A stretch of 64,000 nucleotides of DNA from Planctomycetota bacterium (GTDB lineage Bacteria; Planctomycetota; JAJSAM01; JAJVHW01). A program made the position numbers and the translations under genes. This document shows positions 17,803-43,036 of the stretch, in pieces (position 1 is the stretch's first letter; each line of letters starts with the position of its first letter). Location: NCBI GenBank assembly GCA_021776825.1, contig JAJFFG010000037.1:2437-66436 (forward strand). Direction: 5' to 3'. A model generated the notes under the pieces. That model did not search any database. It was not told the DNA's origin and was given only the letters and a program-made list of their open reading frames with translations.

Positions 17803-17806
17803 GGCT

Positions 17807-19071: not shown

Positions 19072-19092
19072 GTCGTCCTCCGGCTGAACGTT

Positions 19093-24163: not shown

Positions 24164-26125
24164 ATGGCCGAGAGCACGCAGGCGGAACAGCTCTGGCGGA
24201 AGCGCCGGACGGGTGTCTTGCTCGGGCTGCTCGGCTGGGCGGTGGGGGTGCTCCTCGGCGTCTCCGGGCTCTCCAAGTTCGTCGACGCCCCGATCTACGA
24301 CGCGTTCGCAAGGGCGAGTGACTCGATCCCGCAGGACGAGCGCGTCGGACTCGTCTACGTCGGTGACCGCGACGTGGCGCTCTATCGGGAGACGCAGGGG
24401 CGTTGGCCCTGGACCACCCGGCTGCCGCACGCGACGGCCGCCCAGGTCATGTACGAGGCCGGAGCGCTGACCGTCGGCTACGACATCATGTTCCCGGAGG
24501 GTGCGGACGAGGACTCCGACTTCGAGCTGATGGAGTCGATGGCGTTCTTCGACGCCGCAGTGCACGGCGTCCTGTTCCAGACCGCCGGCGGGACGCGCTG
24601 GTCGGACGTCGGCCTCACGGATCGGGCCCTGGAGGCCCTCGCGAACGAGGGCGCGACGTTCGGCACCGACCCCGACACGACCGGCTTGCTCGAGGGGCAC
24701 TCGCCGTCGATGCCGATCGACCTCTTCCTCGAGGGGTCCGAGGCGATGGGTCACCTGAACCCGACGCCCGACCACGACAACGCCATTCGTCGGGTGCCAC
24801 TCTTCGTCCGGAACGAGGGCCTCCTCTATCCCTCACTCGCGTTCCGCATGGCGATGGCCGCTCTCGGCGTCACGCACGAGCAGGTCACACTCGACCTCGA
24901 AGGGCGTGAGGTCCGGATCGAGGTGGCCGAAGGCGATGTGGTCCGAGTGCCGGTGGACCCGGACGGGACGATGTGGGTGCACTACGACCGGCCGATCGAG
25001 GAGCTGGAGGCGATCCTCTACAGCCGCCTCGACGACGCCGCCGCAGCCGGGAAACTCACGGGTCGCCACGTTGTGATCGGCGTCTCAGTGACCGGGTCCC
25101 GTGATGCCTGGCGCACACCGATGGGCGTCCAATGCCCGGGGTTTCTGATCCACGGACAGATCCTCGAGAACGTCCTCACGCGACGCTTCATGACGGCGAT
25201 CCAGCCCGATACCTACCCGACCGGATCGTCGGAGCTGCTCGTGCACGTCTGCGTGCTGCTCGGATGCGTCCTGCTCGGTGTGATTGCTGCGTCCGTCGAG
25301 CCACGTTTCGGGTGGAGCGCCACCCTCGTGCTCGGCGCCGGGCCCCTCGTGCTCGGTTACGTGCTCTTGACCCGCATGGACATCTGGCTGACCCCCGCGA
25401 CCTCGACGTTCGCGCTGTTCGGATCAGGATTCCTCGGCGTCGGCTACCACCAGATCATGCAGGCGCGCGAGCGCCGTCGCATCCGCGGGATCTATGAGCG
25501 CTACCTGTCGCCGCAGGTGCTGGCGCGCGTCATCGACGACCCGACGCTGATGCAGCTCGGCGGGGCCCGCAAGGAGCTGTCCGTGTTCTTCTCGGACATC
25601 CGCGGATTCACGTCGTTCTCCGAGTCCGTCGAGCCGGAGGAACTCACTGAGCGGCTGAACGAGTACTACACGGCGATGATCGACGTCGTCCACGCACACG
25701 AGGGCACGGTCGACAAACTCATCGGCGACAGCCTGATGGTCTTCTTCGGCGATCCCGTGCCGCAGGAGGACCACGCCCTGCGGTCGGTGCGCATGGCGCT
25801 CGACATGCGCGATCGCGTCGAGGAACTCACAACCGAGTGGATTGCGCGCGGTGTGCACCCCTTCGAGGTGGGCATCGGGATCGCGACCGGCCACGTCGCC
25901 GTTGGCAACCTCGGGTCGGAGAAGTTCATCGACTACACGGTCGTCGGGCAGGTCGTGAACCTGGCTGCCAGGCTCCAGGGCGGGGCGAAGCCACGAGAGA
26001 TCCTCGTGAGCGATCGCGTGCGTGAGCTCGTGGACCACGAGATCGAGACCGAACCGTTCGGGAGTCGCGAGTTCAAGGGCATCACCAGCGAGGTCGAAGT
26101 CTTCCGTGTGGTCGGTCCGCGTTAG
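24164..26125 (+). CDS. CHASE2 sensor domain-containing class III adenylate/guanylate cyclase
   Basis: N-terminal TM, periplasmic CHASE2-like region, 3 TM helices, then cyclase catalytic domain (LSVFFSDIRGFTSFSE...KLIGDSLMVFFGDP...GIATGHVAVGNLGS). Start could also be TTG 24128. Confidence 0.8.
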   Translation: MAESTQAEQLWRKRRTGVLLGLLGWAVGVLLGVSGLSKFVDAPIYDAFARASDSIPQDERVGLVYVGDRDVALYRETQGRWPWTTRLPHATAAQVMYEAGALTVGYDIMFPEGADEDSDFELMESMAFFDAAVHGVLFQTAGGTRWSDVGLTDRALEALANEGATFGTDPDTTGLLEGHSPSMPIDLFLEGSEAMGHLNPTPDHDNAIRRVPLFVRNEGLLYPSLAFRMAMAALGVTHEQVTLDLEGREVRIEVAEGDVVRVPVDPDGTMWVHYDRPIEELEAILYSRLDDAAAAGKLTGRHVVIGVSVTGSRDAWRTPMGVQCPGFLIHGQILENVLTRRFMTAIQPDTYPTGSSELLVHVCVLLGCVLLGVIAASVEPRFGWSATLVLGAGPLVLGYVLLTRMDIWLTPATSTFALFGSGFLGVGYHQIMQARERRRIRGIYERYLSPQVLARVIDDPTLMQLGGARKELSVFFSDIRGFTSFSESVEPEELTERLNEYYTAMIDVVHAHEGTVDKLIGDSLMVFFGDPVPQEDHALRSVRMALDMRDRVEELTTEWIARGVHPFEVGIGIATGHVAVGNLGSEKFIDYTVVGQVVNLAARLQGGAKPREILVSDRVRELVDHEIETEPFGSREFKGITSEVEVFRVVGPR

Positions 26126-26223
26126 GCCGGGGCGAACCAGGCTCGACGAGTGCGGTTCCCCCTTCCGACTGGTGGGAGACGCCGACTACAGTGGCGGCGG
26201 TCCGTAGCGGGAGGGTCAGCGAC

Positions 26224-26988
26224 ATGTTCAAGCGTCTCGGCAACCTCATCCGAGGCTTCTTCGCGCTCTTCGTGGGAGACCTCGAACGGCAGAACCCCGA
26301 GGCGCTCCTCGAGGTGGAGAAGGAGAACCTTCGGACCCAGATCGCGAAGTACAACCGCGGTCTCGCCGCCCACGCGGCGCTCTGCGAGCGGCTGATCGGT
26401 CAGGTGAAGAGGCAGGAGAAGGAGCACACGCAGCTCAAGGCCAAGATCACGGCCCACCTGCGTGCCGGCAACCAGGACGCCGCCGGTCAGTACGCGCTGC
26501 GCTTCCAGGAAGTCACGCGCGACCTCACCGAGAACCGCGCTCAGCTCGACGACGCAGAGAAGACCTACAAGGAACTGACCCGCGCTCGCGACACCGCGGT
26601 CGAAGCCGCGCGCGCCAAGCTCCAGTCGCTGAAGCAGTCGATCAGCGACATGAAGGTCAAGCAGGCCACTGCCGAACTGAATGAGATGGCCTCCGGCATG
26701 ATCTCCGAGATCGGGGGCGCCGGCGACACGCTCAACCGTCTAGAGGAGATGGTCAACGAGGAGCGGGATCGCGCCGCGGGCCGCGCCCGGGTCGCGAGCG
26801 ACGCCCTCGAGATGAAGGAGATCAACCTCCAGGAGGTGGAGCGGGACGCGATGGCGCAGATGGCGCTCGCGGACTTCGCCGCCGCCGAGGGCATCTCGCT
26901 GGGCGCCGACGACGCCGCTCCGGTTGCCGACGAGCCGGCGGCCGAGGACGGTGGCAAGTCGATGGGCCCCGTCGCCGGGACCGAGTAG
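26224..26988 (+). CDS. pspA: PspA/IM30 (Vipp1/ESCRT-III-superfamily) protein
   Basis: MFKRLGNLIRGFFALFVGDLER... coiled-coil protein with PspA-like heptad pattern and acidic C-terminus. Confidence 0.8.
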   Translation: MFKRLGNLIRGFFALFVGDLERQNPEALLEVEKENLRTQIAKYNRGLAAHAALCERLIGQVKRQEKEHTQLKAKITAHLRAGNQDAAGQYALRFQEVTRDLTENRAQLDDAEKTYKELTRARDTAVEAARAKLQSLKQSISDMKVKQATAELNEMASGMISEIGGAGDTLNRLEEMVNEERDRAAGRARVASDALEMKEINLQEVERDAMAQMALADFAAAEGISLGADDAAPVADEPAAEDGGKSMGPVAGTE

Positions 26989-26997
26989 CGCGAGATC

Positions 26998-28707
26998 GTG
27001 AACGAGGCGGACGCCCCGTCGTCCACGTCGTCCACCGGGTCCAGCGGCTCCTCCGCGGCGCCGCGGCTGCCCGCGTGGGCCGCCGAGCTCTCGTCGCTCT
27101 ACGAGAGTGACGCGGCCAGCCAGTTCGTCCTGCACGGGAACGTGCACGATCGCGTCTTGCTGCCGCTCTCCGACGGCCCGGCGCTGGGCGGGATCGTCGA
27201 CTTCCTGCTCCGTGCGTTGATGCCGCGCTTCGACGTGATCCTCACGTACGACCTCGGGAACGGCATCCGGCTCGAGAAGGGCGGCGAGATCTTCGCCCAG
27301 TGGCCGAGCGGCGGGAAGGGGACGCTGCCGAAGCAGCCCCGCCCGGCGGTCGAGACGCTGACGCACTACCTGCGCTATGTCGCGAACCTACACGCGCTCG
27401 GACAGAAGAGGCTCCAGGTGGGCATCGTGGTCCGGGATGCGAGTCTCGTCTGCCCGCGGACGCATGGCGCCACGAGCCACGACCAGGCCGCGACGGCGTT
27501 GCTGCTGCGTGACTGGTCGTCCGACTCGGCCTTCGCCGACATGCCTCTCGCGACGTTCCTGCTCGCCGAGAACCTGAATGACCTCCATCCGATCGTGGCG
27601 GCCAACGGCCGCGCCGCGACGCTCGAGGTGCCGCTGCCCGCGGCGAGCGAACTGGCGGACGGCCTCGGCCTGCTCGCCCCGGGGTTCCCGCGCGCTCTCG
27701 TCAAGTACGCCGACGGTCTCGACGATCTCGCCGCGCAATTGGTCGGCGCGTCGCTGGGCGCCGTCGAGTCGCTCCTCCACATGCACGAGCATCGCGGCGA
27801 GTCGCTCGACGACGGGGACCTCGCGGAACTGAAGAAGGCGCTCGTCGAGAAGGACACCGGAGGGCTCATCGAGTTCGTCGAGTCCACGCGGACGCTCGAC
27901 GACTTCCGCGGCCAGGATCACGTTCGCGACTGGCTGCGAGACGACATCGCGCTGTGGCGCCAGGGCGAACTCGGCGCACTCCCGATGGGCTACCTGCTCT
28001 GCGGCCCCGTGGGCACGGGCAAGACGTTCCTCGTCAAGTGCCTGGCAGGAGAGGCGGGCGTGCCGGTCGTGCGCATCCGCAACTTCCGCGACAAGTGGAT
28101 CGGCAGCACGGAAGGCAACCTCGAGACGATCTTCCGGCTTCTGCACGCCCTCGGCCGCTGCTTCGTGTTCGTGGACGAGGCCGACCAAGCGCTCGGCCGC
28201 CGCGGACAGTCGAGCGGCGACTCGGGGCTCTCGGGTCGCATCTACTCGATGATCGCGCAGGAGATGAGCAACCCGGAGAACCGGGGGCGCATCGTCTGGG
28301 TCCTCGCGTCGAGCCGACCGGATCTGATCGAGGTCGATCTGAAGCGTCCCGGTCGCGTCGACGTCCGCATCCCACTGTTCCCGACGACCGACCCGGCGAC
28401 GGCCGCCGATCTCCTGTCCGCGCTGTGTCGTCGCCAACACGTCGATGTCAGCGCCGCGGACCTGGAGCCGCTGCATGCCGTGCTCCCCGATCTGCTGACC
28501 CCGGGTGCCGCCGAGGCCCTCGCGGTCAAGACGTACCGCGCGATGCGCACCCGTGGACTGGCGCCGATCGACGCGCTGCGTGAGTGTCTCGACGGCTACC
28601 AGAGCCCGGTCCCCGAGGCTGTGTTGGAAGCCCAGATCCGGCTCGCGCTGGCCGAGGCAAGTGACCTCGATCTCGTTCCGAAGGCGATCCGCGAGCGGTT
28701 CGCGTAG
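26998..28707 (+). CDS. Classical-clade AAA+ ATPase with ~300-aa N-terminal domain of unknown function, co-operonic with pspA
   Basis: GTG start 9 bp after the pspA stop. Walker A LLCGPVGTGKTFLV, Walker B FVFVDEADQ, second-region-of-homology SRPDLIEVDLKRPGRVDVRIPL. Confidence 0.8.
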   Translation: MNEADAPSSTSSTGSSGSSAAPRLPAWAAELSSLYESDAASQFVLHGNVHDRVLLPLSDGPALGGIVDFLLRALMPRFDVILTYDLGNGIRLEKGGEIFAQWPSGGKGTLPKQPRPAVETLTHYLRYVANLHALGQKRLQVGIVVRDASLVCPRTHGATSHDQAATALLLRDWSSDSAFADMPLATFLLAENLNDLHPIVAANGRAATLEVPLPAASELADGLGLLAPGFPRALVKYADGLDDLAAQLVGASLGAVESLLHMHEHRGESLDDGDLAELKKALVEKDTGGLIEFVESTRTLDDFRGQDHVRDWLRDDIALWRQGELGALPMGYLLCGPVGTGKTFLVKCLAGEAGVPVVRIRNFRDKWIGSTEGNLETIFRLLHALGRCFVFVDEADQALGRRGQSSGDSGLSGRIYSMIAQEMSNPENRGRIVWVLASSRPDLIEVDLKRPGRVDVRIPLFPTTDPATAADLLSALCRRQHVDVSAADLEPLHAVLPDLLTPGAAEALAVKTYRAMRTRGLAPIDALRECLDGYQSPVPEAVLEAQIRLALAEASDLDLVPKAIRERFA

Positions 28708-28729
28708 GCCGGGTTGCGCCCCGCCCGTT

Positions 28730-29260
28730 GCGGTGGCTCGGTGATGTCGCGTGGGTGGCGCTCGGCGTGCGATGGCGGTCGTCCGGACGGCCATCGGTCG
28801 ACGGCGCACGTCTCCTCGGGACCCTCCGGGACGACGGCTGCGACGGATCTCGCCCGGAGCCGTCCGACCCCCCGGCGTCGTTCGCTGACCGCCATCCACC
28901 CGCCTGGTCCGAGCACCGCGTGTCGGCGGGGCGGACCAGGGGGCCCGTCCCTACGGCGCCGTAGCAACAGCGATCGCGTGGGGCTGGCGGCGGCGAGATC
29001 GGTCCGGAGCCCCACCCGGGGCGGGGCGGTTGCGCGTCAGCGCAAGCGCCATGACGCGGGGAATGAGGCCACGCAGGGGTGCGGCCGACGGGGTGGCACT
29101 CGCGTGAGAGCCCTCGCACCCGCGGAGCCGACCAGAAAGATGGGAGGCGCGGCGATTGCCGCACGCCCCGATCTACGTCACCAACCAATCGCTCTGCAAT
29201 CGACGTGCCCCCCCCCCCGGCGGGGCGAATCAGGAGATCCGCCCGTACGCGGCCTTGGGG
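28730..29260. repeat. Composite palindromic repeat cluster (REP/MITE-like family), upstream flank of the flotillin block
   Basis: Contains ggcggggcggaccagggggcccgtccctacggcgccgtag, ~250 bp ~85-90% identical to 38700-38960 (…ggttgcgcgtcagcgcaagcgcc.tgacgcgggg.atgaggccacgca.gg.tgcg.ccgacgggg…ctcg.gtgagag.…gcagccgcggagccgaccag.aa..atgggaggcgcggcgattgc…), and ggcggggcgaatcaggagatccgcccgtacg. Confidence 0.85.
29208..29218. repeat. Homopolymeric C11 tract in intergenic DNA 87 bp upstream of the alpha/beta hydrolase start
   Basis: gtgccccccccccccggcgggg, counted directly. Confidence 0.9.
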
Positions 29261-29304: not shown

Positions 29305-30021
29305 ATGACCGAGGCCCTCGTCCCCATCCGCGACGCCACGCTCTGGACTCGCGTCCACGGCTCCGGCCCGCCGCTCGTCCTCCTCCACGGTGGCCCCGGC
29401 GCGAACGACTATCTCGACCCGGTCGCCGCCATGCTCGACGACCTTGTCACGGTTCATCGCTACGAGCAGCGCGGTTGCGGACGTTCGACCGCCGGCGATC
29501 ACAACGACGTCGCCACGAACGTTGCCGACCTCGAGGCGCTCCGCGAACACTGGGGACATGACCGGTGGATCGTGATGGGGCACTCTTGGGGCGCCGCTCT
29601 CGGTCTGGCCTACGCCCTCGATCACCCGGACCGCGTCGTGGGCCTCGGCTATCTCGCCGGCATCGGCATCGACCGCGCGTGGCGCCCCGCGTTCGAGGAG
29701 GCGTGTCGGACCCGGCGCGACCTCCCGACCGATCCGCCGACCGTGCTCGATCGAGAGCTCAACCGCGTCGTCCAGGCGGATTGGACCCGCCGCTGTGAGG
29801 ACCCGGAACTGATCGGTCGCGTCGAGGCGCTCGACGTCCCAGCCGTGCTCGTCCACGGCACCGCCGACCTGCGACCGAGCATCTCGGCCCGCCGTCTCGC
29901 TGAACTTCTGCCGCGGGCGACGTTTGTCTCACTCCCCGATGCCGACCACGTTCTCTGGCTCTCGCATCCCGACGCGACGTGCTCCGTCCTGCGTGAGATC
30001 GTCGGCCTGTTCGCGCGCTGA
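29305..30021 (+). CDS. Alpha/beta hydrolase (proline iminopeptidase-like)
   Basis: HGGPG oxyanion motif and GHSWG nucleophile elbow. 238 aa. Confidence 0.75.
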   Translation: MTEALVPIRDATLWTRVHGSGPPLVLLHGGPGANDYLDPVAAMLDDLVTVHRYEQRGCGRSTAGDHNDVATNVADLEALREHWGHDRWIVMGHSWGAALGLAYALDHPDRVVGLGYLAGIGIDRAWRPAFEEACRTRRDLPTDPPTVLDRELNRVVQADWTRRCEDPELIGRVEALDVPAVLVHGTADLRPSISARRLAELLPRATFVSLPDADHVLWLSHPDATCSVLREIVGLFAR

Positions 30022-30274
30022 GGGCGCCTGCGAGATCGTCCGAACTCGGCGAACCACAACGGCTTCCGGCGGTTGGACTTCGCAGGGACGACGATCGCAC
30101 GGCACAGGGCTGCGTGGCAGCGACGTCCACTGAGGTTGGATCGAGGCGCGTTGGGACGGGCCACGATCGCGACACGGTCGTGCGCGCCATCGAGAGCTCG
30201 CAGATCCGGCCGCGATCCGGAGGTGGGAGTCGCGGTAGCATCCGCACCCGCACCCGAAGTCCGGGCGCCGAGGG

Positions 30275-30997
30275 ATGAGGGTGATGCAAGGCTTCCTGGA
30301 GTCGATCGTGGCGTTCCCGACGGTGGTCTTCACCGTTCTGATGGGGATCGCGCTGCTCTTCTGGGCTGTGTCGATGCTCGGCGGGATCGATCTCGACGGC
30401 TTCGACGTCGATCTGGACGCCGACATCGACCTCGATGGGGATGCCGATGGCGGCGCGGCGCACACCGGACTCTTGGATACGCTCGGCCTAGCCGGCGTCC
30501 CCATCAGCATCGCGGCGACGGCGCTCGTGTTCTTCGCGTGGGTCATCTCCTTCGTCGCCTCCAGTTGGCTCCTCCCCCTCGTCGGCGGCGGCGTGGTCGG
30601 CACACTCGCTACCGTGGGCATTGGCATCGGCTCGTTCCTGCTGGCCATCCCGCCGGCAGCGATCTGCATGCGCCCTCTGCGCGGCGCGTTCACGACGCAT
30701 CGCGCTGTCCGCAAGCGGACGCTCGTCGGGAGCATCTGCACGATCACCACTCAGCGCGTCACGGACACGTACGGCCAGGCCGAGATCCGCGACGGCGGCG
30801 CAGGCCTGCTGATGCAGGTGCGCTGCCGCGAGGGCGTCACGCTCTCGCGCGACGACACCGCCGTCGTCTGTGAGTACGACGCGGAAGAAGACATCTACGT
30901 CATCGCGCCAGCCGATCAGCTGAGTGCCGCCGACGTCGTGAACAGCGGACACGAGGCGACTTCCCGGGACTCGGGAAGCGCCCACAACGAGAGGTAG
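30275..30997 (+). CDS. YqiJ/NfeD-like inner-membrane protein (flotillin partner) with C-terminal OB-fold-like domain
   Basis: N-terminal TM helices with acidic DLDGFDVDLDADIDLDGDADG stretch, C-terminal soluble beta-rich domain. Ends 7 bp before the flotillin gene. Confidence 0.55.
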   Translation: MRVMQGFLESIVAFPTVVFTVLMGIALLFWAVSMLGGIDLDGFDVDLDADIDLDGDADGGAAHTGLLDTLGLAGVPISIAATALVFFAWVISFVASSWLLPLVGGGVVGTLATVGIGIGSFLLAIPPAAICMRPLRGAFTTHRAVRKRTLVGSICTITTQRVTDTYGQAEIRDGGAGLLMQVRCREGVTLSRDDTAVVCEYDAEEDIYVIAPADQLSAADVVNSGHEATSRDSGSAHNER

Positions 30998-31003
30998 ACG
31001 GTC

Positions 31004-32998
31004 ATGGAGACCCTCATCACGGTCGCGGTTTTCATCGGAGTCGCGTTCTTCGTCATCGTCGCGGGGCTGTTCTTCTTCTCGCGGATCTACCGCAAGGTGG
31101 ACCAGGGCAAGGCGCTGATCGTCAACACGACGGCAGCCGATCCGGACGTCACGTTCACGGGACGCCACGTGATCCCCGTCTTCCACCGCGCCGAGATCAT
31201 GGACATCTCGGTCAAGACGATCGAGCTCGACCGTCGCGGCAAGGAGGGCCTGATCTGCATGGACAACATCCGTGCGGACATCAAGGTCACGTTCTTCGTC
31301 CGTGTCAATAAGACCACCGACGACGTGCTCAAGGTCGCGCAGGCCATCGGCTGCAAGCGCGCCTCGGAGCAGAAGACGCTCGAGGACCTCTTCATCGCGA
31401 AGTTCTCGGAAGCGCTGAAGACCGTCGGCAAGCAACTCGACTTCGTCGACCTCTACACCAAGCGCGACGAGTTCCGCGATCAGATCATCCAGATCATCGG
31501 CCGCGACCTGAACGGCTACGTCCTCGAGGACGCGGCGATCGACTACCTCGAGCAGACTCCGCTGGAGATGCTCGACGGCGACAACATCCTCGACGCCGAG
31601 GGCATTCGGAAGATCACCGAGCTGACCGCGCGGGAGCACGTTCACACGAACCTGTTCCGCAACAACGAGGTCAAGCAGATCAAGAAGCAGGACGTCGAAC
31701 GCGCCGAGGCCGTGTTCCAGCTCGTGCGGCAGGAGGCCGACGCCAAGGCGAAGCAGGAGCGTGAGATCCGCACGGTGCAGGCCCGCGAGGCGGCCGAGAT
31801 CGCTCGCGTCGAGGCAGAAGAGCGCCTGAAGGCCGAGAGCGCGCGCATCAAGAGCGACGAGGACCTCGAGGTCCAGGAACAGAACAAGATGCGTCAGGTC
31901 GAGGTCGCCGAGAAGAACCGCGAGCGTGTGATCGGCATCGAGATCGAGCGCGTCCAGAGGGACCGCGATCTCGAGGCGATCTCTCGCGAGAAGGCGACGG
32001 AGCTCGAGCGCATCGCGAAGGAGAAGGCGCTGGAGATCGAGCGGAAGGCCATCCAGGAGGTCATCGCCGAGCGCGTCGCGGTCGAGAAGACCGTCGCGAT
32101 CGAGGAGGAGGCCATCAAGGAGCTGCGCGTCGTCGAGGAGGCGAGTCGCACGAAGCAGGCCACCGTCATCACGGCCGAGGCCGAGGCGCAGGAACTCCTG
32201 ATCAAGGACGTCAGGGCCGCCGAGGCGCAGGAGTCCGCCGCGAAGCACGAGGCGAGGAAGACGATCATCATGGCCGAGGCGTCGCTCGAGGCCGCGGACA
32301 AGGAAGCACAGGCGAAGATCCGACTGGCCGAGGGCATTCAGGCCCACGAGGCCGCGAGCGGGCTTGCTGCGGCGCGCGTGAAGGAGGCGGACGCCGTCGC
32401 CACGGAGAAGGCCGGCATGGCCGATGCCACGGTGCGTCGCGAGGTCGGCCTGGCCGATGCGGTCGCCATCAAGGAGAAGATGAACGCCGAGGCGTCGGGC
32501 CTCCACGAGAAGGCTGCCGCGATGAAGGAACTCGACGGTGTGGGCCGCGAGCACGAGGAGTTCCGCATCCAGCTCGAGAAGGAGAGGGACGTCCAGATCG
32601 CGGCAATCGACGCGCAGCGGCAGATCGCCGAGGCGCAGGCCCTCACGCTGGGCGAGGCGTTCAAGTCGGCTGACATCGACATCGTCGGTGGCGACGGCCA
32701 GTTCTTCGATCGCATCCTCGGCGCCGTCGGCAACAGCAAGGCGCTAGATGGCTTCGTCAACGGGAGCGACTCGACACGCGCGCTGGTCGGTGAGTACACC
32801 GACGGCACGCGGAGTCTGCCGGCCGACCTCCGCGACGTGCTGACCAACCCCTCGGTCTCGACCGAGGACGCCAAGAACGTCACGCTGACCGCACTGCTCA
32901 TGAAGCTCATGAGCGGTGCGGATGCGGACACGCGCTCGAAGCTCGCGAAGCTTGCCGAGAGTGCGCGCGACATGGGCCTGATGGACTCGAGCAAGTAG
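31004..32998 (+). CDS. Flotillin-like SPFH/band-7 protein (YqiK-like)
   Basis: N-terminal TM, SPFH domain, very long Ala/Glu-rich flotillin repeat region (EAxxEA heptads). 664 aa. Confidence 0.85.
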   Translation: METLITVAVFIGVAFFVIVAGLFFFSRIYRKVDQGKALIVNTTAADPDVTFTGRHVIPVFHRAEIMDISVKTIELDRRGKEGLICMDNIRADIKVTFFVRVNKTTDDVLKVAQAIGCKRASEQKTLEDLFIAKFSEALKTVGKQLDFVDLYTKRDEFRDQIIQIIGRDLNGYVLEDAAIDYLEQTPLEMLDGDNILDAEGIRKITELTAREHVHTNLFRNNEVKQIKKQDVERAEAVFQLVRQEADAKAKQEREIRTVQAREAAEIARVEAEERLKAESARIKSDEDLEVQEQNKMRQVEVAEKNRERVIGIEIERVQRDRDLEAISREKATELERIAKEKALEIERKAIQEVIAERVAVEKTVAIEEEAIKELRVVEEASRTKQATVITAEAEAQELLIKDVRAAEAQESAAKHEARKTIIMAEASLEAADKEAQAKIRLAEGIQAHEAASGLAAARVKEADAVATEKAGMADATVRREVGLADAVAIKEKMNAEASGLHEKAAAMKELDGVGREHEEFRIQLEKERDVQIAAIDAQRQIAEAQALTLGEAFKSADIDIVGGDGQFFDRILGAVGNSKALDGFVNGSDSTRALVGEYTDGTRSLPADLRDVLTNPSVSTEDAKNVTLTALLMKLMSGADADTRSKLAKLAESARDMGLMDSSK

Positions 32999-33026
32999 GC
33001 GCCGGGATCGACACGGAGAGATCGCG

Positions 33027-36000
33027 GTGAGCGACGCATCTGACGGCGACACGGGCGCCCCCTCGATCGAGCGGGGGACGTACGAGGTCATCCGCGAACG
33101 GCTTCTCGGCAGCGGCCGAGAGTTGTCGCAGAAGGCCGAGGCGCTGAACGCGAGTCGGCTCGAGATGTTCGGTGGAACGCAGCTCGCCGTCAGTGGCAGC
33201 GAGCGCCTGCGGACCGAGAACAACTGCGTTCCCCGCGACATCGTCGCGATCGGGAACCGACTGCTGTTCGGCTACAACGTCTTCATCGGACTCAAGCGCG
33301 AGACGCGCGTCGATGACGTGTTCTCGTTCCAGACCGCAACGGCGCAGAACGGGACGTACGAGTTCTCGCCGGTCGAGGACGACGGCACCCCGAACCCGTT
33401 CGCTGACGAGCGCTTCCGTCACGACTTCCGGGAGCTCTACGCGTACTACAGCCAGGCGCGACTGCTCACGTTGCGCAAGGTCGACGGGAAACTGCTTGCC
33501 GTGTTCCAGGTGGGCCGCAACGTCACCGACGTGAAGGGCTTCCGCTGGGCCCTCGGCGTCGACGGGTCGATCACGTACATCGACAACCAGGCCGACCGCG
33601 ATCACGGCTATCCGCCGACGCACGACTTCGAGTGGACGGAGACGTCGCGGGACGACCACGCCCTCGGCCTGCACCCGCACGTGTCCATTCTCGACGAGGT
33701 GTTCGTCGAGACCGTCGGGGGCGATCTCACGGTCAAGGTCGAGGACAACACCGCCGACGGCCTTGGCGTCTATCGCGAGTCAGTGGTCGACGAGAACCAA
33801 GGGCTCGACGACGCCTCGATTCACTACGCGAAACTCGGCAGCCTGATCCTGATCCGCTTGCTGCCGTTCCGCGAGGAGCAGTGGCGCTACCTCGTGTTCA
33901 ACACGCTGACGCAGCACGTCTCGCGCATCGACCACATCGGCCAGGCGTGCGTCCAGTTGCCCGAGGACCACGGGATCATCTTCCCGGGCGGCTACTACCT
34001 GCAGCGCGGTGAGACGAAGACCTTCGCGGCAGACATCCAGGGCATGCGGCTCGAGCGCACCGTCCGCTCGCCGAACGGCGAGGACGTGCTGTACGTCTTC
34101 TATCGCCAGGAGGACGGCGCGTACGTCCTGCTGCCCTACAACATGATCCGCAAGCAGGTCGACACACCGATCCGGTGTCACGGCTACTGCCTGTTCGAGG
34201 ACGGTCGCATGGTCGTCGTCCGGGCAGCCGGGAGCGAAGCGACGCGGGTTCATCCCATCCAGGTGTGGCAGACGCCGTTCACGGGCGACGTCTTCGCGGA
34301 CGCGCGGGCCACGGGGAACAGCTTCCTCGAGCGGGTCGGCAATGCGGATCTCGTCCGCGGGATCTCCGACTGCCTCTCCGTGCATCGCATGGTGGAGGAG
34401 CAGAAGCCGACGCTCGCGATGTACGAGGAGCTCATCGCCGAGACCTCGCGCGTCTTGGATCAGTACCACTGGCTTGGCGCGGACGACGTCGACAACCTTC
34501 TCGCGACGTTGCGCCAGGTGCGCGAGACGGCGGAGCTCGTCATCGACGAGTTCGAGAAAGTGCAGGCGCTGCGCGCCGAGGCCTCGCGCGTGTTGGCCGA
34601 GGCCGACGAGCGCGTGAAGAAACTGGTCACGCGGCTGCGGTCGGCGGGCTGGAAGGCGGTCGAGAAGTTCGTCGATGCGATGACCGAACTGCGTCGCGAA
34701 CGCGGACGGCTCATCTCGCTGCGCGACGTGCGCTACATCGACGTCGACCGAGTGACAGCGCTCGAGCAGTCCGTCATCGATCGCTTCGACGCCGTGAGTG
34801 CGAAGTCGGTGGAGTTCCTCGTCGGGGCCTCGGCGCTCGAGCCATACCTCGTGCGTGTCGCCGACATCGAGGCCGCCGTCGAGACCGTCGCCAAGGTCAC
34901 CGAGACCGCGCCGCTGACCGAGTCGTTGAACGAGACGAGTGGCGCTCTCAACATGCTCACGGAGGTTGTTGGCGGTCTGGCGATCGACGACGCCACCGTT
35001 CGCACCTCGATCCTCGAGGCGATCAGCGAGGTGATGGCGTCGCTCAACCGAGCGCGCGCGCTGCTCCAGGCGCGTCGCCGTCAGTTGCTTCGCCAGGAGG
35101 GCGTTGCCGAGTTCGCCGCGCAGTTCTCGCTGCTTGCGCAGAGCGTCTCCGGGGCGCTCGCGATGGCGGACACGCCGGAGCGTTGCGACGACCAGCTCTC
35201 GCGCCTCATGGTGCAGCTCGAGGAGATGGAGGGGCGGTTCAGCGAGTTCGACGAGTTTCTCGAACAGCTGACGACGAAGCGCGAGGAGATCTACGAGGCG
35301 CTGGAGGGCAAGAAGCAGTCCCTCCTCGATCAGCAGCAGCGTCGTGCACATCATCTGATGCAGGCCGTCGAGCGCATCCTGGCCGGCGTGGCGCGCCGCG
35401 CGTCCGGGCTCGGCGAACAGGACGATCTGAACGCGTACTTCGCATCCGACGCGATGGTGATGAAGGTCCGCGAGATGGCGGGCCGTCTGCGTGACCTGGA
35501 CGACTCGGTGCGCGCCGACGAGGTCGAGTCACGACTGAAGTCCGCGCGCGAGGACGCCGTACGCGCGCTGCGCGATCGTCAGGATCTCTTCGAGGACGGC
35601 GCGTCCGTCATCCGCCTGGGCAAGCACCGGTTCAGCGTGAACACGCAAGCGCTCGACCTGACGCTCGTGCCGCACGACGACGGCTTGGCGCTGCACCTGA
35701 CCGGTACGGACTTCCGCGAGCCGATCGTCGACGAGACGTTCGAAGCGACCCGCGAGTACTGGGCGCAGGAACTCGTCTCCGAGACGCCGGCTGTCTATCG
35801 GTCCGAGTACCTCGCGTACTCGATCCTCGCGGCTGCCGAGACCGAGAGCGACGGGCTGTCGTTGACGCGTCTGACCGAGGCCGTCGTCGACGACGCCGCG
35901 TTGCTCGCCTTGGTCCGCGAACACGCGGCCTCCCGATACGACGAGGGGTACGAACGCGGCGTTCACGATCACGACGCTGCGGCGATCCTGTCGCGCCTTG

Positions 36001-38402
36001 TCGGGCTCTATGGGACTGCCGGGCTTCTGCGCTTCGCCCCGCACGCCCGCGCCGCGGCGTCGGTGGCATGGGCGTTCTCGCCCGCCTCGGATCGCCGCGA
36101 CAGCTTGGCGAGCCGCGCGTCGAGCCTCGCTCGGTTGCGCACGGCATTCGCGCACAGCGAGGCGATCACGTCCGTCGAGTCCGATCTCTGCCGCTTCGTT
36201 GCCGAGTTCCACTCGGAGCACGGGCTGGAACTGAACGACGGGACGGCTCGCGTGGCGGGGCGCTATCTGTTCGAGGAGCTCGCGCGGGGCACCGATCGGT
36301 TCGTCGCGAGTGGCGAGGCCGCGGCTCTGCGCGACGCCTTCCTCGCGCGCCTCGACACGCTCGGCGTGCGTCATGCGTTGACCGAGGACCTCGACGGGCT
36401 CGACGGTCGACTCGCGGAGCGCCATGCCTTGCTGACGGCGTGGATGGAGACGTGGCTGGAGGCGCAGCCGGATGCCGAGGCCTCACGCCCGGTCCTTCCG
36501 GAGTCGGTCGGATTGGTGCTCACCGACGGTGTCCTTGCTCGCGACGTGCAGAGCTCGTTGAGCACCGCCGTCGTCGAGGGCGTCCTCGGCCAGCACGCGC
36601 GGATCGACGATCGACGTCTCCCGCTGCGGCTCGACGAGTTCCTCGGGCGACTCTCCCGTTTCCTGCACGAGCGTGTGCCCGCGTACCGCGCGTATCAGCG
36701 TGTTCGGGCAGAGCTGCTCGAGCGCGAGCGCGAGCGACTGCGGATCTCGGAGTACCTGCCGCGCGTGCTGAGCTCGTTCGTGCGCAACCGCCTGATCGAC
36801 GAGGTCTACCTTCCGCTGATCGGTGACAACCTGGCCAAGCAGCTCGGAGCGAGAGGCGAGGGCAAGCGCACCGATCTGATGGGGTTGTTGCTCCTCATCT
36901 CACCGCCGGGCTACGGCAAGACGACCTTGATGGAGTACGTCGCCAATCGACTCGGTCTGGTCTTCATGAAGATCAACGGTCCGGCGCTCGGCCACGGCGT
37001 CACGTCGCTCGATCCGGCCGAGGCGCCGAGTGCGACGGCGCGGCAAGAGGTCCAGAAGATCAACCTCGCGTTCGAGATGGGCAACAACGTGCTGCTCTAC
37101 CTCGACGACATCCAGCACACGCACCCGGAACTGCTCCAGAAGTTCATCTCGCTCTGCGACGCGACACGCAAGGTCGAGGGTGTCTGGCGTGGGCGCACGC
37201 AGACGTACGACCTGCGCGGGAAGAAGTTCGTCGTCTGCATGGCGGGCAATCCCTACACGGAGTCGGGCGAGCGCTTCCAGGTGCCCGACATGCTGGCCAA
37301 CCGCGCCGACGTCTACAACCTGGGCGACGTGCTCTCCGGCAAGGACGACCTCTTCGCGCTGAGCTACATCGAGAACGCGCTCACGTCGAACCCGGTGCTC
37401 GCGCAGATCACGACGCACGATCATCGCGACGTCCACGTGCTGGTGCGGATGGCGCGTGGCGAAGAGGTCCCCGCGTCCGAGCTTCAGCACGACTACCCGC
37501 AGGTGGAGCGCGAGGAGATCCTCGCGGTGCTGCGGAAGGTCCTGCGTGTGCAGGAGGTGCTCCTCGCGGTCAATCGCGAGTACATCCGCTCCGCGTCGAT
37601 GGACGACGACTTCCGCACCGAGCCACCATTCGGGCTGCAGGGCAGCTACCGCAACATGAACAAGCTCGCCGAGAAGATCGTCGCCGTGATGAACGACGCC
37701 GAGCTCGAGGCGTTGCTCGTGGATCACTACGCCGGCGAATCGCAGACGCTCACGAGCGGTGCGGAGCAGAACCTCCTGAAACTGGCGGAGTTGCGTGGCG
37801 CGCTGACCGAAGAGCAGGCAGCGCGTTGGGACGAGATCCGCGCGGCGTTCCAGCGGCGTCAGCGGATGGGCGGAGACGACGACGATCCGGTTCTGCGGGT
37901 GACCTCGCAACTGGGACATCTCGGCGATCGCGTCGAGTCGGTGGGGGAGTCGATCCGCTCGGCGGCCGAGGCGGCGACGGAACGTCAACGCGGGTGGCAG
38001 GATGCCTTGGTCGCGCGTCGAGAGCAGACCGCTGCCGAGACCGCATTCGAGTCGGCGCTGGCCGCCGCGCAGGCCGACGATGGCGACGCGGAGCGCACGG
38101 GCGAGGCCGTCGGTCGTGCGCTCACGCCGGTGCTGGAACGGATCGCGGAGCTGGCGGCTGCGCGCCCCGAGCCGGCTCTGGACCTCGACGGTGTGGACGA
38201 CGCCGACGGCTTCGCGGCTCTGGCGACGCGCCAGGCCGAGGTCATCGAGGTCGGCCTGCTACCCGTCCTTCGTTCGCTGAACCAGAACCTCCGCGTCTCA
38301 CGCACGGTATGGGATCGACTGAACTCCGTCAGCCAGGCTCTCGCCGCCCTGGCCGGGACCGAACCGCCGGGACCGTTGCCGGAGGCGGACGACGGGACGT
38401 AG
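33027..38402 (+). CDS. Giant (1791 aa) protein with AAA_5/MoxR-like ATPase domain, co-operonic with flotillin
   Basis: GTG start 28 bp after the flotillin stop with GGAGAG SD. Walker A ISPPGYGKTTLMEY, Walker B LLYLDDIQ, FVVCMAGNPY sensor region at residues ~1240-1400. Long helical N- and C-terminal regions. No other domain recognised. Confidence 0.7.
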   Translation: MSDASDGDTGAPSIERGTYEVIRERLLGSGRELSQKAEALNASRLEMFGGTQLAVSGSERLRTENNCVPRDIVAIGNRLLFGYNVFIGLKRETRVDDVFSFQTATAQNGTYEFSPVEDDGTPNPFADERFRHDFRELYAYYSQARLLTLRKVDGKLLAVFQVGRNVTDVKGFRWALGVDGSITYIDNQADRDHGYPPTHDFEWTETSRDDHALGLHPHVSILDEVFVETVGGDLTVKVEDNTADGLGVYRESVVDENQGLDDASIHYAKLGSLILIRLLPFREEQWRYLVFNTLTQHVSRIDHIGQACVQLPEDHGIIFPGGYYLQRGETKTFAADIQGMRLERTVRSPNGEDVLYVFYRQEDGAYVLLPYNMIRKQVDTPIRCHGYCLFEDGRMVVVRAAGSEATRVHPIQVWQTPFTGDVFADARATGNSFLERVGNADLVRGISDCLSVHRMVEEQKPTLAMYEELIAETSRVLDQYHWLGADDVDNLLATLRQVRETAELVIDEFEKVQALRAEASRVLAEADERVKKLVTRLRSAGWKAVEKFVDAMTELRRERGRLISLRDVRYIDVDRVTALEQSVIDRFDAVSAKSVEFLVGASALEPYLVRVADIEAAVETVAKVTETAPLTESLNETSGALNMLTEVVGGLAIDDATVRTSILEAISEVMASLNRARALLQARRRQLLRQEGVAEFAAQFSLLAQSVSGALAMADTPERCDDQLSRLMVQLEEMEGRFSEFDEFLEQLTTKREEIYEALEGKKQSLLDQQQRRAHHLMQAVERILAGVARRASGLGEQDDLNAYFASDAMVMKVREMAGRLRDLDDSVRADEVESRLKSAREDAVRALRDRQDLFEDGASVIRLGKHRFSVNTQALDLTLVPHDDGLALHLTGTDFREPIVDETFEATREYWAQELVSETPAVYRSEYLAYSILAAAETESDGLSLTRLTEAVVDDAALLALVREHAASRYDEGYERGVHDHDAAAILSRLVGLYGTAGLLRFAPHARAAASVAWAFSPASDRRDSLASRASSLARLRTAFAHSEAITSVESDLCRFVAEFHSEHGLELNDGTARVAGRYLFEELARGTDRFVASGEAAALRDAFLARLDTLGVRHALTEDLDGLDGRLAERHALLTAWMETWLEAQPDAEASRPVLPESVGLVLTDGVLARDVQSSLSTAVVEGVLGQHARIDDRRLPLRLDEFLGRLSRFLHERVPAYRAYQRVRAELLERERERLRISEYLPRVLSSFVRNRLIDEVYLPLIGDNLAKQLGARGEGKRTDLMGLLLLISPPGYGKTTLMEYVANRLGLVFMKINGPALGHGVTSLDPAEAPSATARQEVQKINLAFEMGNNVLLYLDDIQHTHPELLQKFISLCDATRKVEGVWRGRTQTYDLRGKKFVVCMAGNPYTESGERFQVPDMLANRADVYNLGDVLSGKDDLFALSYIENALTSNPVLAQITTHDHRDVHVLVRMARGEEVPASELQHDYPQVEREEILAVLRKVLRVQEVLLAVNREYIRSASMDDDFRTEPPFGLQGSYRNMNKLAEKIVAVMNDAELEALLVDHYAGESQTLTSGAEQNLLKLAELRGALTEEQAARWDEIRAAFQRRQRMGGDDDDPVLRVTSQLGHLGDRVESVGESIRSAAEAATERQRGWQDALVARREQTAAETAFESALAAAQADDGDAERTGEAVGRALTPVLERIAELAAARPEPALDLDGVDDADGFAALATRQAEVIEVGLLPVLRSLNQNLRVSRTVWDRLNSVSQALAALAGTEPPGPLPEADDGT

Positions 38403-38404
38403 GG

Positions 38405-39412
38405 GTGAGGGCGGTTGACCGGGCGGCGACGCAAGGGATAGCGACGCCCTCGACCGAGAGCCGCCCGCATTCCACGGGCCGCCGCCCAGCGCCATCGGAT
38501 CCGCGTCGTCCGCGCGACCCAAGCGGGCGGGGCGGATCAGGAGATCCGCCCGTACGACCCGATTGAGGTGGCGCGACCTGCGGATCGAATCCGGACATGG
38601 GGCGCGACGCGGACCGAGAACACGGTTCTCGACCGATGGCCGTCCGCATCACGAGGGTCGTTCGCCGAGCGCCATCGGACCCGCCTCGCGCGGACAACCC
38701 CAGCGGGCGGGGCGGACCAGGGGGTCCGCCCCTACGGCGCCGTTGACCCAGCGATCGCGTGGGGCTGGCGGAGGCGAGGTCGCCACGGATCCGCACCCGG
38801 GGCGCGGCGGTTGCGCGTCAGCGCAAGCGCCGTGACGCGGGAGATGAGGCCACGCAAGGCTGCGACCGACGGGGCGGCTCTCGTGTGAGAGCTGACGCAG
38901 CCGCGGAGCCGACCAGGAACATGGGAGGCGCGGCGATTGCGACATGCCCCCAACGAGCGTCCACGTTCGACTGGCGCCGCAATCGACGTGACCCCGGGGC
39001 GCTGCGGTTGCGCGTCAGCGCAAGCGCCGTGACGCGGGGCAACGAGGCCACGCAAGGCTGCGACCGAGGGGGTTGCGCTCTCGTGTGAGAGGTGACGCAG
39101 CCGCGGAGCCGACCAGGGACAATGAGGGCGGGGCGGACCAGGGGGTCCGCCCCTACGGCGCCGTTGACCCAGCGATCGCATGAGGTTGGCGGGGGCGAGG
39201 TCGAGCCGGATCCCCACCCGGGGCGCGCTGGTTGCGCTCGAGCGCAAGCAGCGTGACGCGGGGAATGTGTGCGCGGAGGTCCTCGACCGGCGCCGATGGC
39301 TCTCGCGAGACGTGTGACGAGACCGAGCACACACCAGACAGAAACACAGGGCGCGGCGATTGCCGCATCTCTCGACGCGCGCTCACCCGAGACGCGCCCT
39401 GCAATCGCCGTG
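38405..39412. repeat. Largest cluster of the composite palindromic repeat family (units A, middle motif, B, then two to three ~300-bp B-type copies), downstream flank of the flotillin block
   Basis: 38523 gcgggcggggcggatcaggagatccgcccgtacgacccgattgaggtggcgcg. 38700 and 39125 gggcggggcggaccagggggtccgcccctacggcgccgttgacccagcgatcgc.tg.gg.tggcgg. ttgcgcgtcagcgcaagcgccgtgacgcgggg at 38810 and 39005, degenerate at 39230. Confidence 0.85.
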
Positions 39413-39416
39413 ACCG

Positions 39417-39822: not shown

Positions 39823-40248
39823 TCAGGTCGCCAGCGAGAGCGTGAGGAAGGCGTGCCAGGTCTCGTCGTCGTCCGAGGCGATGGTCAGGTCGTGGACCTG
39901 ATGACCGACCAGGTCCCGCAGGCGATCGTTGATGCGCTCGTCGAGTTCCTCGAGCGCGCCCTCGACGCGGATCACCTTGAACTCGGGTGAGGGCGTCTCT
40001 GGACGCTGCGGGCCCGCCTGCTGGACGGCGCCGAGCATCTGCGACGCGAGGAAGAGGCGCTGTCCGAAGCGATCCTCCATCTCCTGGTAGGAGTAGGAGA
40101 AGCCGGGTCCGGCGAGGTCCTCCTCGTTCTCGACGGCCTTGTCGACGAGCTGGCTGACCATGCCCCGCCAGACGCGGTGGAGCGAGCGCTGTGCGCGACG
40201 GCGATCGCTCTCGTCGATGGGGACTCCGCCGTCACGGCGCTGACTCAT
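39823..40248 (-). CDS. Hypothetical cytoplasmic protein
   Basis: 141 aa, high GC3 coding bias. No domain recognised. Confidence 0.5.
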   Translation of the reverse strand: MSQRRDGGVPIDESDRRRAQRSLHRVWRGMVSQLVDKAVENEEDLAGPGFSYSYQEMEDRFGQRLFLASQMLGAVQQAGPQRPETPSPEFKVIRVEGALEELDERINDRLRDLVGHQVHDLTIASDDDETWHAFLTLSLAT

Positions 40249-40324
40249 CTGCGCAATCTACCGCCGAGACCGTGGCGGTGCGCGATCCGTAACGCTCTGT
40301 CCGTCGTCTCGTAGACTCGAACAG

Positions 40325-41542
40325 ATGCACCTGCAACGATCCTCCGTGGTCCGAGCGACGGCTCTGGTCGTCGGTCTGGCCGCCCTCGCCACCTCCTCGT
40401 CGTCGCTGGCGGCGAAGACGGCTCCCGCCTGGGTGCTCGATGGGCAGCGCGTGGTCGCGATCGAGGCGGGCGTCGGTTCGCTGGCCGGTCGGTACGGCTA
40501 CGATCTCGGCCCGTTCTTCGCGAATGTCTCGTTGGCCTACGACGGGCGCGGGAAACTCTCCGGCGGCGGGCTCGCTGGCACCTCGATCTACAACGTCTCG
40601 GGCACGTGGGGCGTCGATCCCGCGACGGGTCGCGCCGCCGTCCATCTCGAGGAGGTCTCGCCGACACCGAAGTTGGTGTTCGACGGCGTCCAGTCCGAGG
40701 ACCTGCTGCGCATCGACGGCACGTACACCCGAGTGGCGGGCTTCGCGGGGATCTCCGAGGCAGCGGCGGGGCCGTTGTCGCTCGGGCGCACGCCGCCGGT
40801 GCCAGCCGAGACCGCGTTCACGCTGCGCTTCAGCGCTCGGCAGTCGGGTGGGGGCAAGATCTCCAATGCCGTCCGCACGGTCGCGGCCAAGCGCGAGAAG
40901 GTCCTGGCGTCGCTGGAGATCTTCGGGGACGAGGTGCTGGAGAGCGGCAAGGTCCGTGGGAAGCTCAAGACCGATCGCGCCGGCTTCTCGACGGCGAAGC
41001 TCCAGGTGAAGGGGAAGGGCTGGTCGGTGAAGATGACCGGCCCCGTGGACGCCGACGGGTTCCACGCCACGGCGACCGTCAAGACGCCCATCTTGAACCT
41101 GGAAGGCGTGCTTCTCGAATTGCCGGCGGAGGCCGCGCCCGACGCGCCGCCGCCCCCGCCTCCATCGGTGCCGGAGGACTTCCTCGACGGCGCCTTCGCA
41201 CGCATCGAGGCCGGCCAGATCACGATCACGCGCGGCAACGTCCCGAAGCGCTTCTTCGGGAAGTCGAGCGACCTGACGATCCGGTTCCCGGCCACGGTGG
41301 GCGCGGGCGTCACGTCCTGCACGCCCCTGACGGCAGGTGGAGCGAACCCGCGCCTCTTCCTTGTCGAGCAGGGCAATAAGGCATTCGGGACGGCGCTCGA
41401 GCCGGCGAACGTCCAGCTCGACATCACCACGTTCTCGACGCAGACCGGGCAGACCATCCGCCTCCGCGCCACCGGCACGACGGTGCGCGACGACGGCAAG
41501 ACGAAGACCGTCGACGTGGACATCCTCGCGACGATCCTCTGA
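40325..41542 (+). CDS. Secreted hypothetical protein (Gly/Thr-rich beta protein)
   Basis: Signal peptide MHLQRSSVVRATALVVGLAALATSSSSLAA. PPPPPP linker at ~290. No domain recognised. Confidence 0.55.
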   Translation: MHLQRSSVVRATALVVGLAALATSSSSLAAKTAPAWVLDGQRVVAIEAGVGSLAGRYGYDLGPFFANVSLAYDGRGKLSGGGLAGTSIYNVSGTWGVDPATGRAAVHLEEVSPTPKLVFDGVQSEDLLRIDGTYTRVAGFAGISEAAAGPLSLGRTPPVPAETAFTLRFSARQSGGGKISNAVRTVAAKREKVLASLEIFGDEVLESGKVRGKLKTDRAGFSTAKLQVKGKGWSVKMTGPVDADGFHATATVKTPILNLEGVLLELPAEAAPDAPPPPPPSVPEDFLDGAFARIEAGQITITRGNVPKRFFGKSSDLTIRFPATVGAGVTSCTPLTAGGANPRLFLVEQGNKAFGTALEPANVQLDITTFSTQTGQTIRLRATGTTVRDDGKTKTVDVDILATIL

Positions 41543-41588
41543 GTAGGAGAGCGCCGGGTCGGTGGCGAGCTCTCGCTCGCGCGGGGCC

Positions 41589-42926: not shown

Positions 42927-43036
42927 GAAAGGTCTCGACGCCGCCGTCGTGCGCCGCGCAGGGGGATCGCTGCGACCGACGACGGGAGCGCGCTACGCTC
43001 CGCGGTTCGAGACCATAGTCCCGAGGAGAGTGCCCC

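Follow-up and report, generated by a model that had tools for sequence, protein, structure and literature searches.

A flotillin operon with a giant AAA+ ATPase in a planctomycete genome and its conservation across bacterial phyla

Three adjacent genes in a genome of the Planctomycetota form one operon, which encodes a short NfeD-like membrane protein, a flotillin and a giant ATPase. The operon spans positions 30275-38402 of the DNA analysed here, a 64-kb stretch of contig JAJFFG010000037.1 with ~70% GC (the window; features in Table 1). The giant-linked operon is real and conserved across at least five phyla. The window holds one more instance of a system that has been described computationally and is experimentally untouched. 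On balance, we favour the view that this system is an SPFH/NfeD scaffold with the giant as an ATP-driven partner that remodels it.

Results

The operon is conserved across phyla

The original prediction, made from the letters of the window, had claimed four open reading frames (ORFs) between 29305 and 38402. All four are present on the + strand where it had placed them. Their G+C content at third codon positions (GC3) of 0.83-0.92 is typical of real genes in the window. The hydrolase gene ends 253 nt before the NfeD-like gene (given earlier as 250 bp). Six nucleotides, not 7 bp, separate the NfeD-like gene from the flotillin gene, and the claimed 28 nt lie between flotillin gene and giant. Shine-Dalgarno-like, purine-rich stretches precede the starts of flotillin and giant. 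A scan for promoters and terminators gave no signal exceeding shuffled expectation.

The giant belongs to a large family. At 90% identity, its homologues fall into more than 7000 clusters, and they are named 'DNA repair ATPase' (NCBI) or 'MoxR-like ATPase', depending on the source. Among the 120 matches listed, which include metagenome-assembled genomes named Myxococcota, Acidobacteriota and Planctomycetota, identity to the window giant is 54-68%; for genome loci of other phyla it is 46-59%. DUF3686 is confined to full-length proteins of the giant architecture (~1550-2040 aa; 779 clusters at 50% identity).

For the neighbourhood of the giant gene we sampled one genome per species, which returned at least 570 loci, and examined the best 80. 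The phyla among these 80 are Myxococcota, Actinomycetota (many loci), Planctomycetota, Acidobacteriota and others, together with Gammaproteobacteria such as Pseudomonas, Xanthomonas, Stenotrophomonas, Xenorhabdus and Methylomonas. Carriers also include Streptomyces, Myxococcus, Proteus and Deinococcus megaplasmids, and the giants have 1600-1900 aa.

The co-occurrence of flotillin and giant is nearly complete: of 79 evaluable loci, 78 have a flotillin gene immediately 5' of the giant (45-65% identity, tblastn with the window protein). An NfeD-like gene precedes the flotillin gene in about 70 of 75 loci (23-41% identity, tblastn). Between the NfeD-like and flotillin genes, most of 64 loci have a gap of -8 to ~130 nt. 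Values of -1, -4 or -8 nt are frequent among the gaps of this triad and point to translational coupling. The original prediction had taken the three genes for one operon on the basis of their spacing, and nearly all genomes with the giant do keep their order. Among the surveyed loci, no fourth gene is universally conserved at the triad. A VWA-domain gene adjoins the triad neither in the window nor in the surveyed loci; in one contig (L085), a VWA_CoxE and AAA pair is encoded on the other strand at a distance of 7 kb.

The triad also occurs on three further contigs (L085-L087) with unrelated flanks. These are the three nearest relatives, and their giants are 64-68% identical to that of the window. 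Thirteen records of a plasmid collection carry the giant family as well; the records comprise megaplasmids, chromids and Proteus chromosomes that are mislabelled.

The giant is a propeller-like, helical and AAA+ protein

The original prediction recognised only one domain in the giant, a MoxR/dynein-like AAA_5 module in an otherwise long helical protein. That there is no other domain is wrong, as both DUF3686 and DUF7902 are present (Table 1). The two motifs on which the module was recognised, ISPPGYGKTT and LLYLDDIQ, are found near residue 1300 as described. It is a single module, and the best structural matches of its core are of the MoxR type (NorQ, CbbQ, midasin), with ClpA at a nearly equal score. 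AAA_5 reaches 24.4 bits against a gathering cutoff of 22, and PF00004 scores higher. A sequence search of the PDB matched the giant at Walker A only.

The active site hardly varies. Walker A (GYGKTT), YLDDIQH, sensor-1 and the Arg finger are invariant in alignments of 14 and 54 giants. Walker B has the form hhhhDD (YLDDIQH) in 54 of 54 aligned giants, and Asp-Glu in none. No aromatic-hydrophobic pore-loop motif was seen after strand beta-2 of the AAA+ module. The missing aromatic pore loop and the invariant Asp-Asp suggest that the giant would be a slow, switch-like remodeller and not a threading unfoldase.

With the MoxR class (NorQ, CbbQ, RavA) and midasin, the giant shares a motif of the form P-D-x-L-x-x-R after sensor-1. 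Unlike MoxR systems, it has no VWA partner gene, its Walker B reads DD and not DE, and its ATPase follows an N-terminal extension of 1250 aa. A direct profile comparison with E. coli RavA was uninformative (hhalign, 6% probability).

We modelled the giant with AlphaFold2 (AF2) as two pieces, aa 1-1000 and aa 901-1791, each on a 54-sequence alignment. The mean predicted local distance difference test scores are 82.4 and 81.8, respectively. In the models (secondary structure by DSSP), a helix (aa 18-48) precedes a beta-rich domain (aa ~54-415) and long helical bundles of ~430 residues (aa 421-854). After these come a small beta unit, a compact helical domain that is predicted with very high confidence (aa ~925-1165) and two long helices. 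The AAA+ alpha/beta core with its lid is next, and a poorly conserved, low-confidence helical tail ends the protein. The giant has no transmembrane (TM) or other hydrophobic segment.

A remote-homology search of the AF2 model with Foldseek, proposed along with the original prediction, gave propeller-like matches to the N-terminal beta domain. They are weak (E 1e-6 to 1e-4, TM-score to the target 0.3-0.4) and lead to WD40 and other propellers, among them DCAF1, Ski8, paraoxonase and prolyl oligopeptidase. The beta-rich domain of DUF3686 is best called a divergent beta-propeller, as judged from the model.

Flotillin and the NfeD-like protein

The flotillin was correctly recognised as such. It is of the YqiK type: in BLASTP, aa 10-445 match E. 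coli YqiK with an E-value of 1e-33 (28% identity over 446 aa), an alignment that takes in the membrane anchor and the SPFH region. From the N-terminus, the protein consists of a TM anchor (its one TM segment, aa 1-30), the SPFH/Band-7 domain, a long coiled coil rich in Glu, Ala and Lys, and a C-terminal tail. A sequence search of the PDB found no match for it.

Giant-linked flotillins group closely together as a subfamily, with 47-78% identity to the window flotillin against 25% for E. coli YqiK. Furthermore, they carry a segment of ~70 aa that YqiK lacks and that appears as a gap in its alignment (AEA.GL..K..AM...R.HEEFR; aa ~486-556, window ~32459-32671). This HEEFR segment and the C-terminal tail are candidate docking sites for the giant.

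The NfeD-like protein is more divergent. A profile of a 34-member alignment matches E. coli YqiJ (hhalign, 93% probability, E 2.8e-7) over the TM2-3 region and the beta domain, in agreement with the YqiJ/NfeD-like identity assigned earlier. Pfam YqiJ_N matches are sub-threshold and present for 6 of the 34 members, and Pfam NfeD is likewise sub-threshold. PADLOC and NCBIfam assign no family to this protein or to the flotillin. The NfeD-like protein has three hydrophobic segments, which are three predicted TM helices, an Asp-rich acidic loop and a conserved beta-rich, predicted OB-like domain at the C-terminus, which would be cytoplasmic. The motif GQAE..DGGAGL..VR is conserved throughout the alignment. 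Judged by the same alignment, translation probably starts at M4 (30284).

Comparison with known systems

The same three-protein operon has been described by comparative genomics in a study of phage shock protein (PSP) systems (mSystems 2024, PMC11237479). There, a CesT/Tir-PspA dyad is combined with three genes; in order, they encode a 3TM protein prototyped by YqiJ/YuaF, a flotillin with Band-7 domain and coiled coil, and an ATPase with beta-propeller, coiled coil and AAA+ domain. A role in sub-membrane dynamics is proposed. PLD is added in some Proteobacteria, and Table S3 of the paper gives the same gene order in Dokdonia donghaensis. The paper devotes one paragraph to the operon, without experiments. 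Separately, it describes PspA paired with a Vps4-like or double-AAA+ protein (PMC11237479).

The window agrees with the published operon in its three proteins, their domain order and their gene order. It corresponds to the form that its authors call 'abbreviated', without the CesT/Tir-PspA dyad. The window does have a PspA gene, but it is a different one, paired with a gene for an AAA protein of 569 aa and located 3.3 kb upstream. YjfI/DUF2170 was not found among those window ORFs that were scanned with Pfam (a part of the total), and the gap between the hydrolase and NfeD-like genes has no room for a DUF2170 gene. The original prediction had called the giant a partner not found in flotillin textbooks. 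This is fair, except that PMC11237479 had already described the pairing computationally.

Our literature search found no experimental study of the giant, and searching for DUF3686/PF12458 or its flotillin link by that name returned nothing. Several of our observations are not stated in the consulted passages of PMC11237479 and may be useful: the near-universal linkage, the single architecture of DUF3686, the invariant DD Walker B, the insert of the flotillin subfamily and the case for renaming the family.

Simpler NfeD-flotillin pairs of the SPFH2 type are known from E. coli (yqiJ-yqiK) and B. subtilis (yuaF-yuaG, also floT). Their proteins are homologous to those of the window, in the same order and with a short gap. 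In E. coli no third gene belongs to the pair, and sibD/ibsD come after yqiK. A survey of SPFH proteins covers yqiJK and not the third gene (Hinderhofer 2009, PMC2636767).

In HflK/C-FtsH and in prohibitin with the m-AAA protease, an SPFH cage is partnered with an AAA+ machine. HflK/C-FtsH and the operon share the principle of an SPFH membrane scaffold with an AAA+ partner. This is an analogy alone, with no homology beyond the AAA+ fold. FtsH is a membrane-anchored classical AAA protease, whereas the giant is a soluble protein that lacks a protease domain and combines a probable MoxR-like core with a propeller and helical arms.

What the operon may do

By analogy with HflK/C, the cages of eukaryotic flotillins and FloA-NfeD of S. 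aureus, we propose that flotillin and the NfeD-like protein would form an SPFH scaffold at the inner membrane, on its cytoplasmic side. The giant would dock on this scaffold via its propeller and helical arm, possibly at the HEEFR segment and the C-terminal tail of flotillin. With its AAA+ ring, it would then build, remodel or take apart this scaffold or the clients that the scaffold holds. The system may act in a membrane-stress context that it shares with PspA. Put together, the giant would be a dedicated nucleotide-driven partner, a MoxR-like ring on a propeller-helical arm, which docks at the HEEFR segment or tail and, when the membrane is under stress, loads the SPFH/NfeD cage, remodels it or takes it apart. 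The evidence leans mildly towards this detailed picture, which is nevertheless tentative and could easily prove wrong.

Several points count against a giant that remodels a flotillin scaffold. We infer both the contact between giant and flotillin and the ATPase activity. With Asp-Asp in Walker B, ATP might be hydrolysed very slowly. E. coli yqiJK functions as a pair without the giant, which makes the ATPase an accessory in one flotillin subfamily and no general requirement. Two loci of Polyangiales/Myxococcales (L015 and L048) have no adjacent NfeD-like gene, and in L048 the flotillin gene and the giant are 6.5 kb apart. Finally, the window flotillin has no Pfam match at E 0.01, Band_7 included; an orthologue with 60% identity (L002) passes Band_7, with 41.6 bits against 23.6.

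Alternatively, the giant could be a structural coat or tether. Its propeller and arm would polymerise on flotillin or bridge it, and the AAA+ module would serve only as a nucleotide-gated assembly switch. The order of domains, a propeller followed by ~800 aa of helical domains, fits such a role, as do the invariant Asp in place of the catalytic Glu and the lack of an aromatic pore-loop motif. The longest Foldseek alignments also lead to propeller and solenoid proteins (IFT-A, Nup, clathrin). However, at TM-scores of 0.04-0.15 these alignments reflect no more than a shared order of secondary structure, and the invariant sensor-1, Arg finger and Walker A argue for a working ATPase cycle. We consider a mere coat unlikely.

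PspA and the membrane-stress context

The original prediction grouped the triad with an upstream pspA-AAA pair into a membrane-stress supercluster. The pair itself is confirmed, with PspA above its Pfam threshold and a classical AAA protein. It is a separate two-gene unit: between PspA and the triad lie the second AAA gene, a repeat cluster and the hydrolase, and PspA is not part of the same operon. The pair (26191-28707) fits the PspA and double-AAA+ pairs of PMC11237479, as PspA is followed by an AAA protein with a C-terminal AAA domain. A recognisable AAA domain is present in the C-terminal half of the 569-aa protein alone.

As a neighbour of the triad, the pair is not conserved. It is missing beside the triad in the three nearest relatives (L085-L087). 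Of the 80 loci, one, the planctomycete L046, has an AAA protein of the 569-aa family as an immediate neighbour of the triad, and it is the sole comparable case; L032 has a second, weaker match to this family, at ~9 kb on the 3' side of the giant. The L046 protein has 642 aa, is homologous to the 569-aa protein (5e-32, including an N-terminal motif) and follows a 296-aa coiled-coil protein; the pair (3915-6780, - strand) is oriented divergently to the triad. This partner is not identifiable as PspA, since BLASTP found no match between it and the window PspA. A jackhmmer search of 84 loci with the PspA of the window recovered no relative. The window pair is a possible functional partner of the triad in its own genome, not a conserved neighbour.

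The link to PspA is found in other lineages instead. In 15 gammaproteobacterial loci, DUF2170 (YjfI) and a YjfJ-type PspA, of another subfamily than that of the window, lie immediately 5' of the triad. Genes of 190 aa and 230 aa recur downstream in 8-9 of these 15 loci. We scanned the downstream genes for domains in L034 only (5376-6711, 15196-19169), where they encode a rhomboid protease, a PLD-family protein and a superfamily 1 (SF1) helicase with an MTES_1575 nuclease domain. On the P. fluorescens plasmid pQBR103 (L091, 1-12190), a whole yjf-type operon is joined to the triad: PspA, rhomboid, DUF2491, DUF350, DUF1190, glutathionylspermidine synthase, a hypothetical protein, SPFH and 'DNA repair ATPase'. 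PspA operons have been fused to the triad repeatedly, which would place the system in membrane-stress maintenance. This part of the supercluster idea stands, and the window pair as a conserved neighbour does not.

Upstream of the pair, the cyclase gene is separated by 65 nt from PspA, which in turn is separated by 9 nt from AAA (24128-28707), a possible three-gene unit for signalling and membrane remodelling. In the nearest relative L085, a MASE10-cyclase gene lies 1.6 kb 3' of the giant gene.

The nuclease-bearing helicase and the PLD-family gene 3' of the triad in L034 could also suggest an anti-phage or conflict system, in which a membrane sensor or effector is coupled to a large nucleoside triphosphatase. 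So could the presence of the triad on pQBR103 and other megaplasmids, and its variable neighbourhoods among genomes. We find this improbable. For the three proteins, PADLOC gives no more than noise and a coiled-coil-level match to LmuB (4e-6, aa 510-886), and no homologue of the giant was found among 50,697 phage records. The window giant is 46-68% identical to all homologues recovered, unlike fast-evolving defence genes. The flanks are mostly housekeeping genes and no defence islands, and the recurrent partner, PspA, is a membrane-repair protein.

Hydrolase, repeats and the island question

The hydrolase, which the original prediction had counted as a module member, is unlinked to the operon in any relative: none of 87 loci has a homologue beside the triad. 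It is an incidental neighbour outside the conserved module.

Repeats of one family do lie on both sides of the block of hydrolase and triad, as claimed, although not as one ~300-bp palindrome. The unit of ~290 nt is G+C-rich and forms a chain of several hairpins (for example GGGGCGGACCAGGGGGTCCGCCCC; fold z = -3.3). Copies at 28843-29212 and 38622-38995 are 80% identical over 374 nt in direct orientation, and more copies follow downstream (38993-39135, 39126-39415). The family occurs in three intergenic regions of the window and in both orientations. Because it is also found 27 kb upstream (1-129 and 971-1455), the block is not uniquely bracketed, and the family is a dispersed intergenic one. 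Rfam has no match to it, nor to anything else in the window. The fetched relatives contain no copy, and a metagenome scan with the repeat core returned one unrelated 46-nt match alone. The family resembles repetitive extragenic palindromic (REP) or bacterial interspersed mosaic element (BIME) type elements.

These repeats had led to the proposal that the 9-kb block is a mobile or recent island beside pspA-AAA, the two forming a joint supercluster at 26.2-38.4 kb. In favour of an island, the flanking copies share their orientation, the PspA-AAA pair lies close by (597 nt 5' of the hydrolase and 1.6 kb 5' of the NfeD-like gene), and triad neighbourhoods differ among genomes, with some triads on megaplasmids. 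But the repeat family is dispersed, and the block borders hold no integrase, transposase, tRNA or other mobility gene. Beyond the repeats, the window shares three genes with the region 3' of the L086 triad (window 39823-44098, L086 18356-25229); the two giants are 66% identical. The shared genes encode a 141-aa protein (64% identity), a 405-aa protein (47%) and Mrp/ApbC (80%). This synteny, the absence of mobility genes and a GC3 that does not differ from that of the neighbours argue against a repeat-bounded island, as far as relatives at this distance can show. In L085-L087 and 79 of the 80 genome loci, the triad has neither the hydrolase nor the PspA-AAA pair as a neighbour. We give the island little credence.

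The 405-aa protein (40325-41542) is conserved and unannotated, and has no Pfam domain. Elsewhere in the window, a 1107-aa protein (45059-48382, - strand) combines peptidase M1 (aa ~285-427) with a C-terminal peptidase M28 (aa 908-1098). A gene with FecR and FGE-sulfatase domains (22542-24311, - strand) overlaps the cyclase ORF (24128-26125, + strand) head-to-head by 184 nt; the TTG start of one or both ORFs was probably called too far upstream.

Table 1. Positions of the operon, its domains and motifs, and neighbouring features in the window.
Feature	Position in window (nt)	Position in protein (aa)	Strand	Remarks
YqiJ/YuaF-type short NfeD-like membrane protein	30275-30997		+	240 aa; operon gene 1
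YqiK-type flotillin	31004-32998		+	664 aa
Giant soluble ATPase, DUF3686-DUF7902-AAA+ family	33027-38402		+	1791 aa; GTG start
DUF3686 (PF12458)	33120-34469	32-481	+	E 8.4e-204; full profile 1-448
DUF7902 (PF25472)	34833-35084	603-686	+	E 4.9e-28; inside helical-bundle region aa ~421-854
AAA+ nucleotide-binding core	36888-37262	1288-1412	+	Pfam AAA (PF00004) 1.1e-7; AAA_5 3.2e-5
Walker A SPPGYGKTT	36900-36926	1292-1300	+	within ISPPGYGKTT, aa 1291-1300
Walker B LLYLDDIQ	37092-37115	1356-1363	+	Asp-Asp where Asp-Glu is usual
Sensor-1 (giant)		N1408	+	invariant alignment column
Candidate Arg finger (giant)		R1426	+	invariant alignment column
Alpha/beta hydrolase	29305-30021		+	238 aa; Pfam Abhydrolase_1, E 5e-21
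CHASE2-adenylate/guanylate cyclase	24128-26125		+	upstream of PspA gene
PspA/IM30	26191-26988		+	Pfam PspA_IM30 2.3e-10; 40.9 bits, cutoff 33.9
Classical AAA ATPase	26998-28707		+	569 aa; Pfam AAA 9e-24; 9 nt after PspA gene
Repeat cluster, upstream	28717-29250			dispersed structured intergenic family
Repeat cluster, downstream	38423-39415			about 2.5 units; same family as 28717-29250
Repeat cluster, third	1-129 and 971-1455			27 kb upstream; same family

Discussion

Bacterial flotillins have been much studied, and their mechanism is disputed. The window brings no new kind of system to this debate, and its PspA-AAA neighbour is unusual and probably incidental. What the survey brings out is one flotillin subfamily with an obligate and very highly conserved ATPase, which offers a tractable route to the function of SPFH scaffolds.

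It is hardly credible that the giant is a DNA repair ATPase akin to SbcC/Rad50/SMC whose linkage to flotillin is incidental: the Pfam description of DUF3686 ('ATPase involved in DNA repair'), the NCBI product names and weak matches to Rad50, SMC and LmuB over aa ~490-890 speak for it, but these matches are confined to the coiled-coil/helical region and lie far under curated cutoffs, the ATPase is AAA+ without an ABC/SMC head, Pfam detects neither a nuclease nor a domain that binds DNA, both invariant partners are membrane proteins, and our literature search yielded no paper that ties the family to DNA repair. The 'DNA repair' names seem to derive from coiled-coil similarity to Rad50/SMC-type proteins and nothing else. 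Because the genomic context is entirely membrane-related, it argues for renaming the 'DNA repair ATPase' of thousands of genomes as a flotillin-associated AAA+ ATPase.

If the giant does remodel an SPFH/NfeD scaffold, then the pairing of an SPFH cage with an AAA+ machine would be a general design principle, for which bacteria would have a second, non-proteolytic solution.

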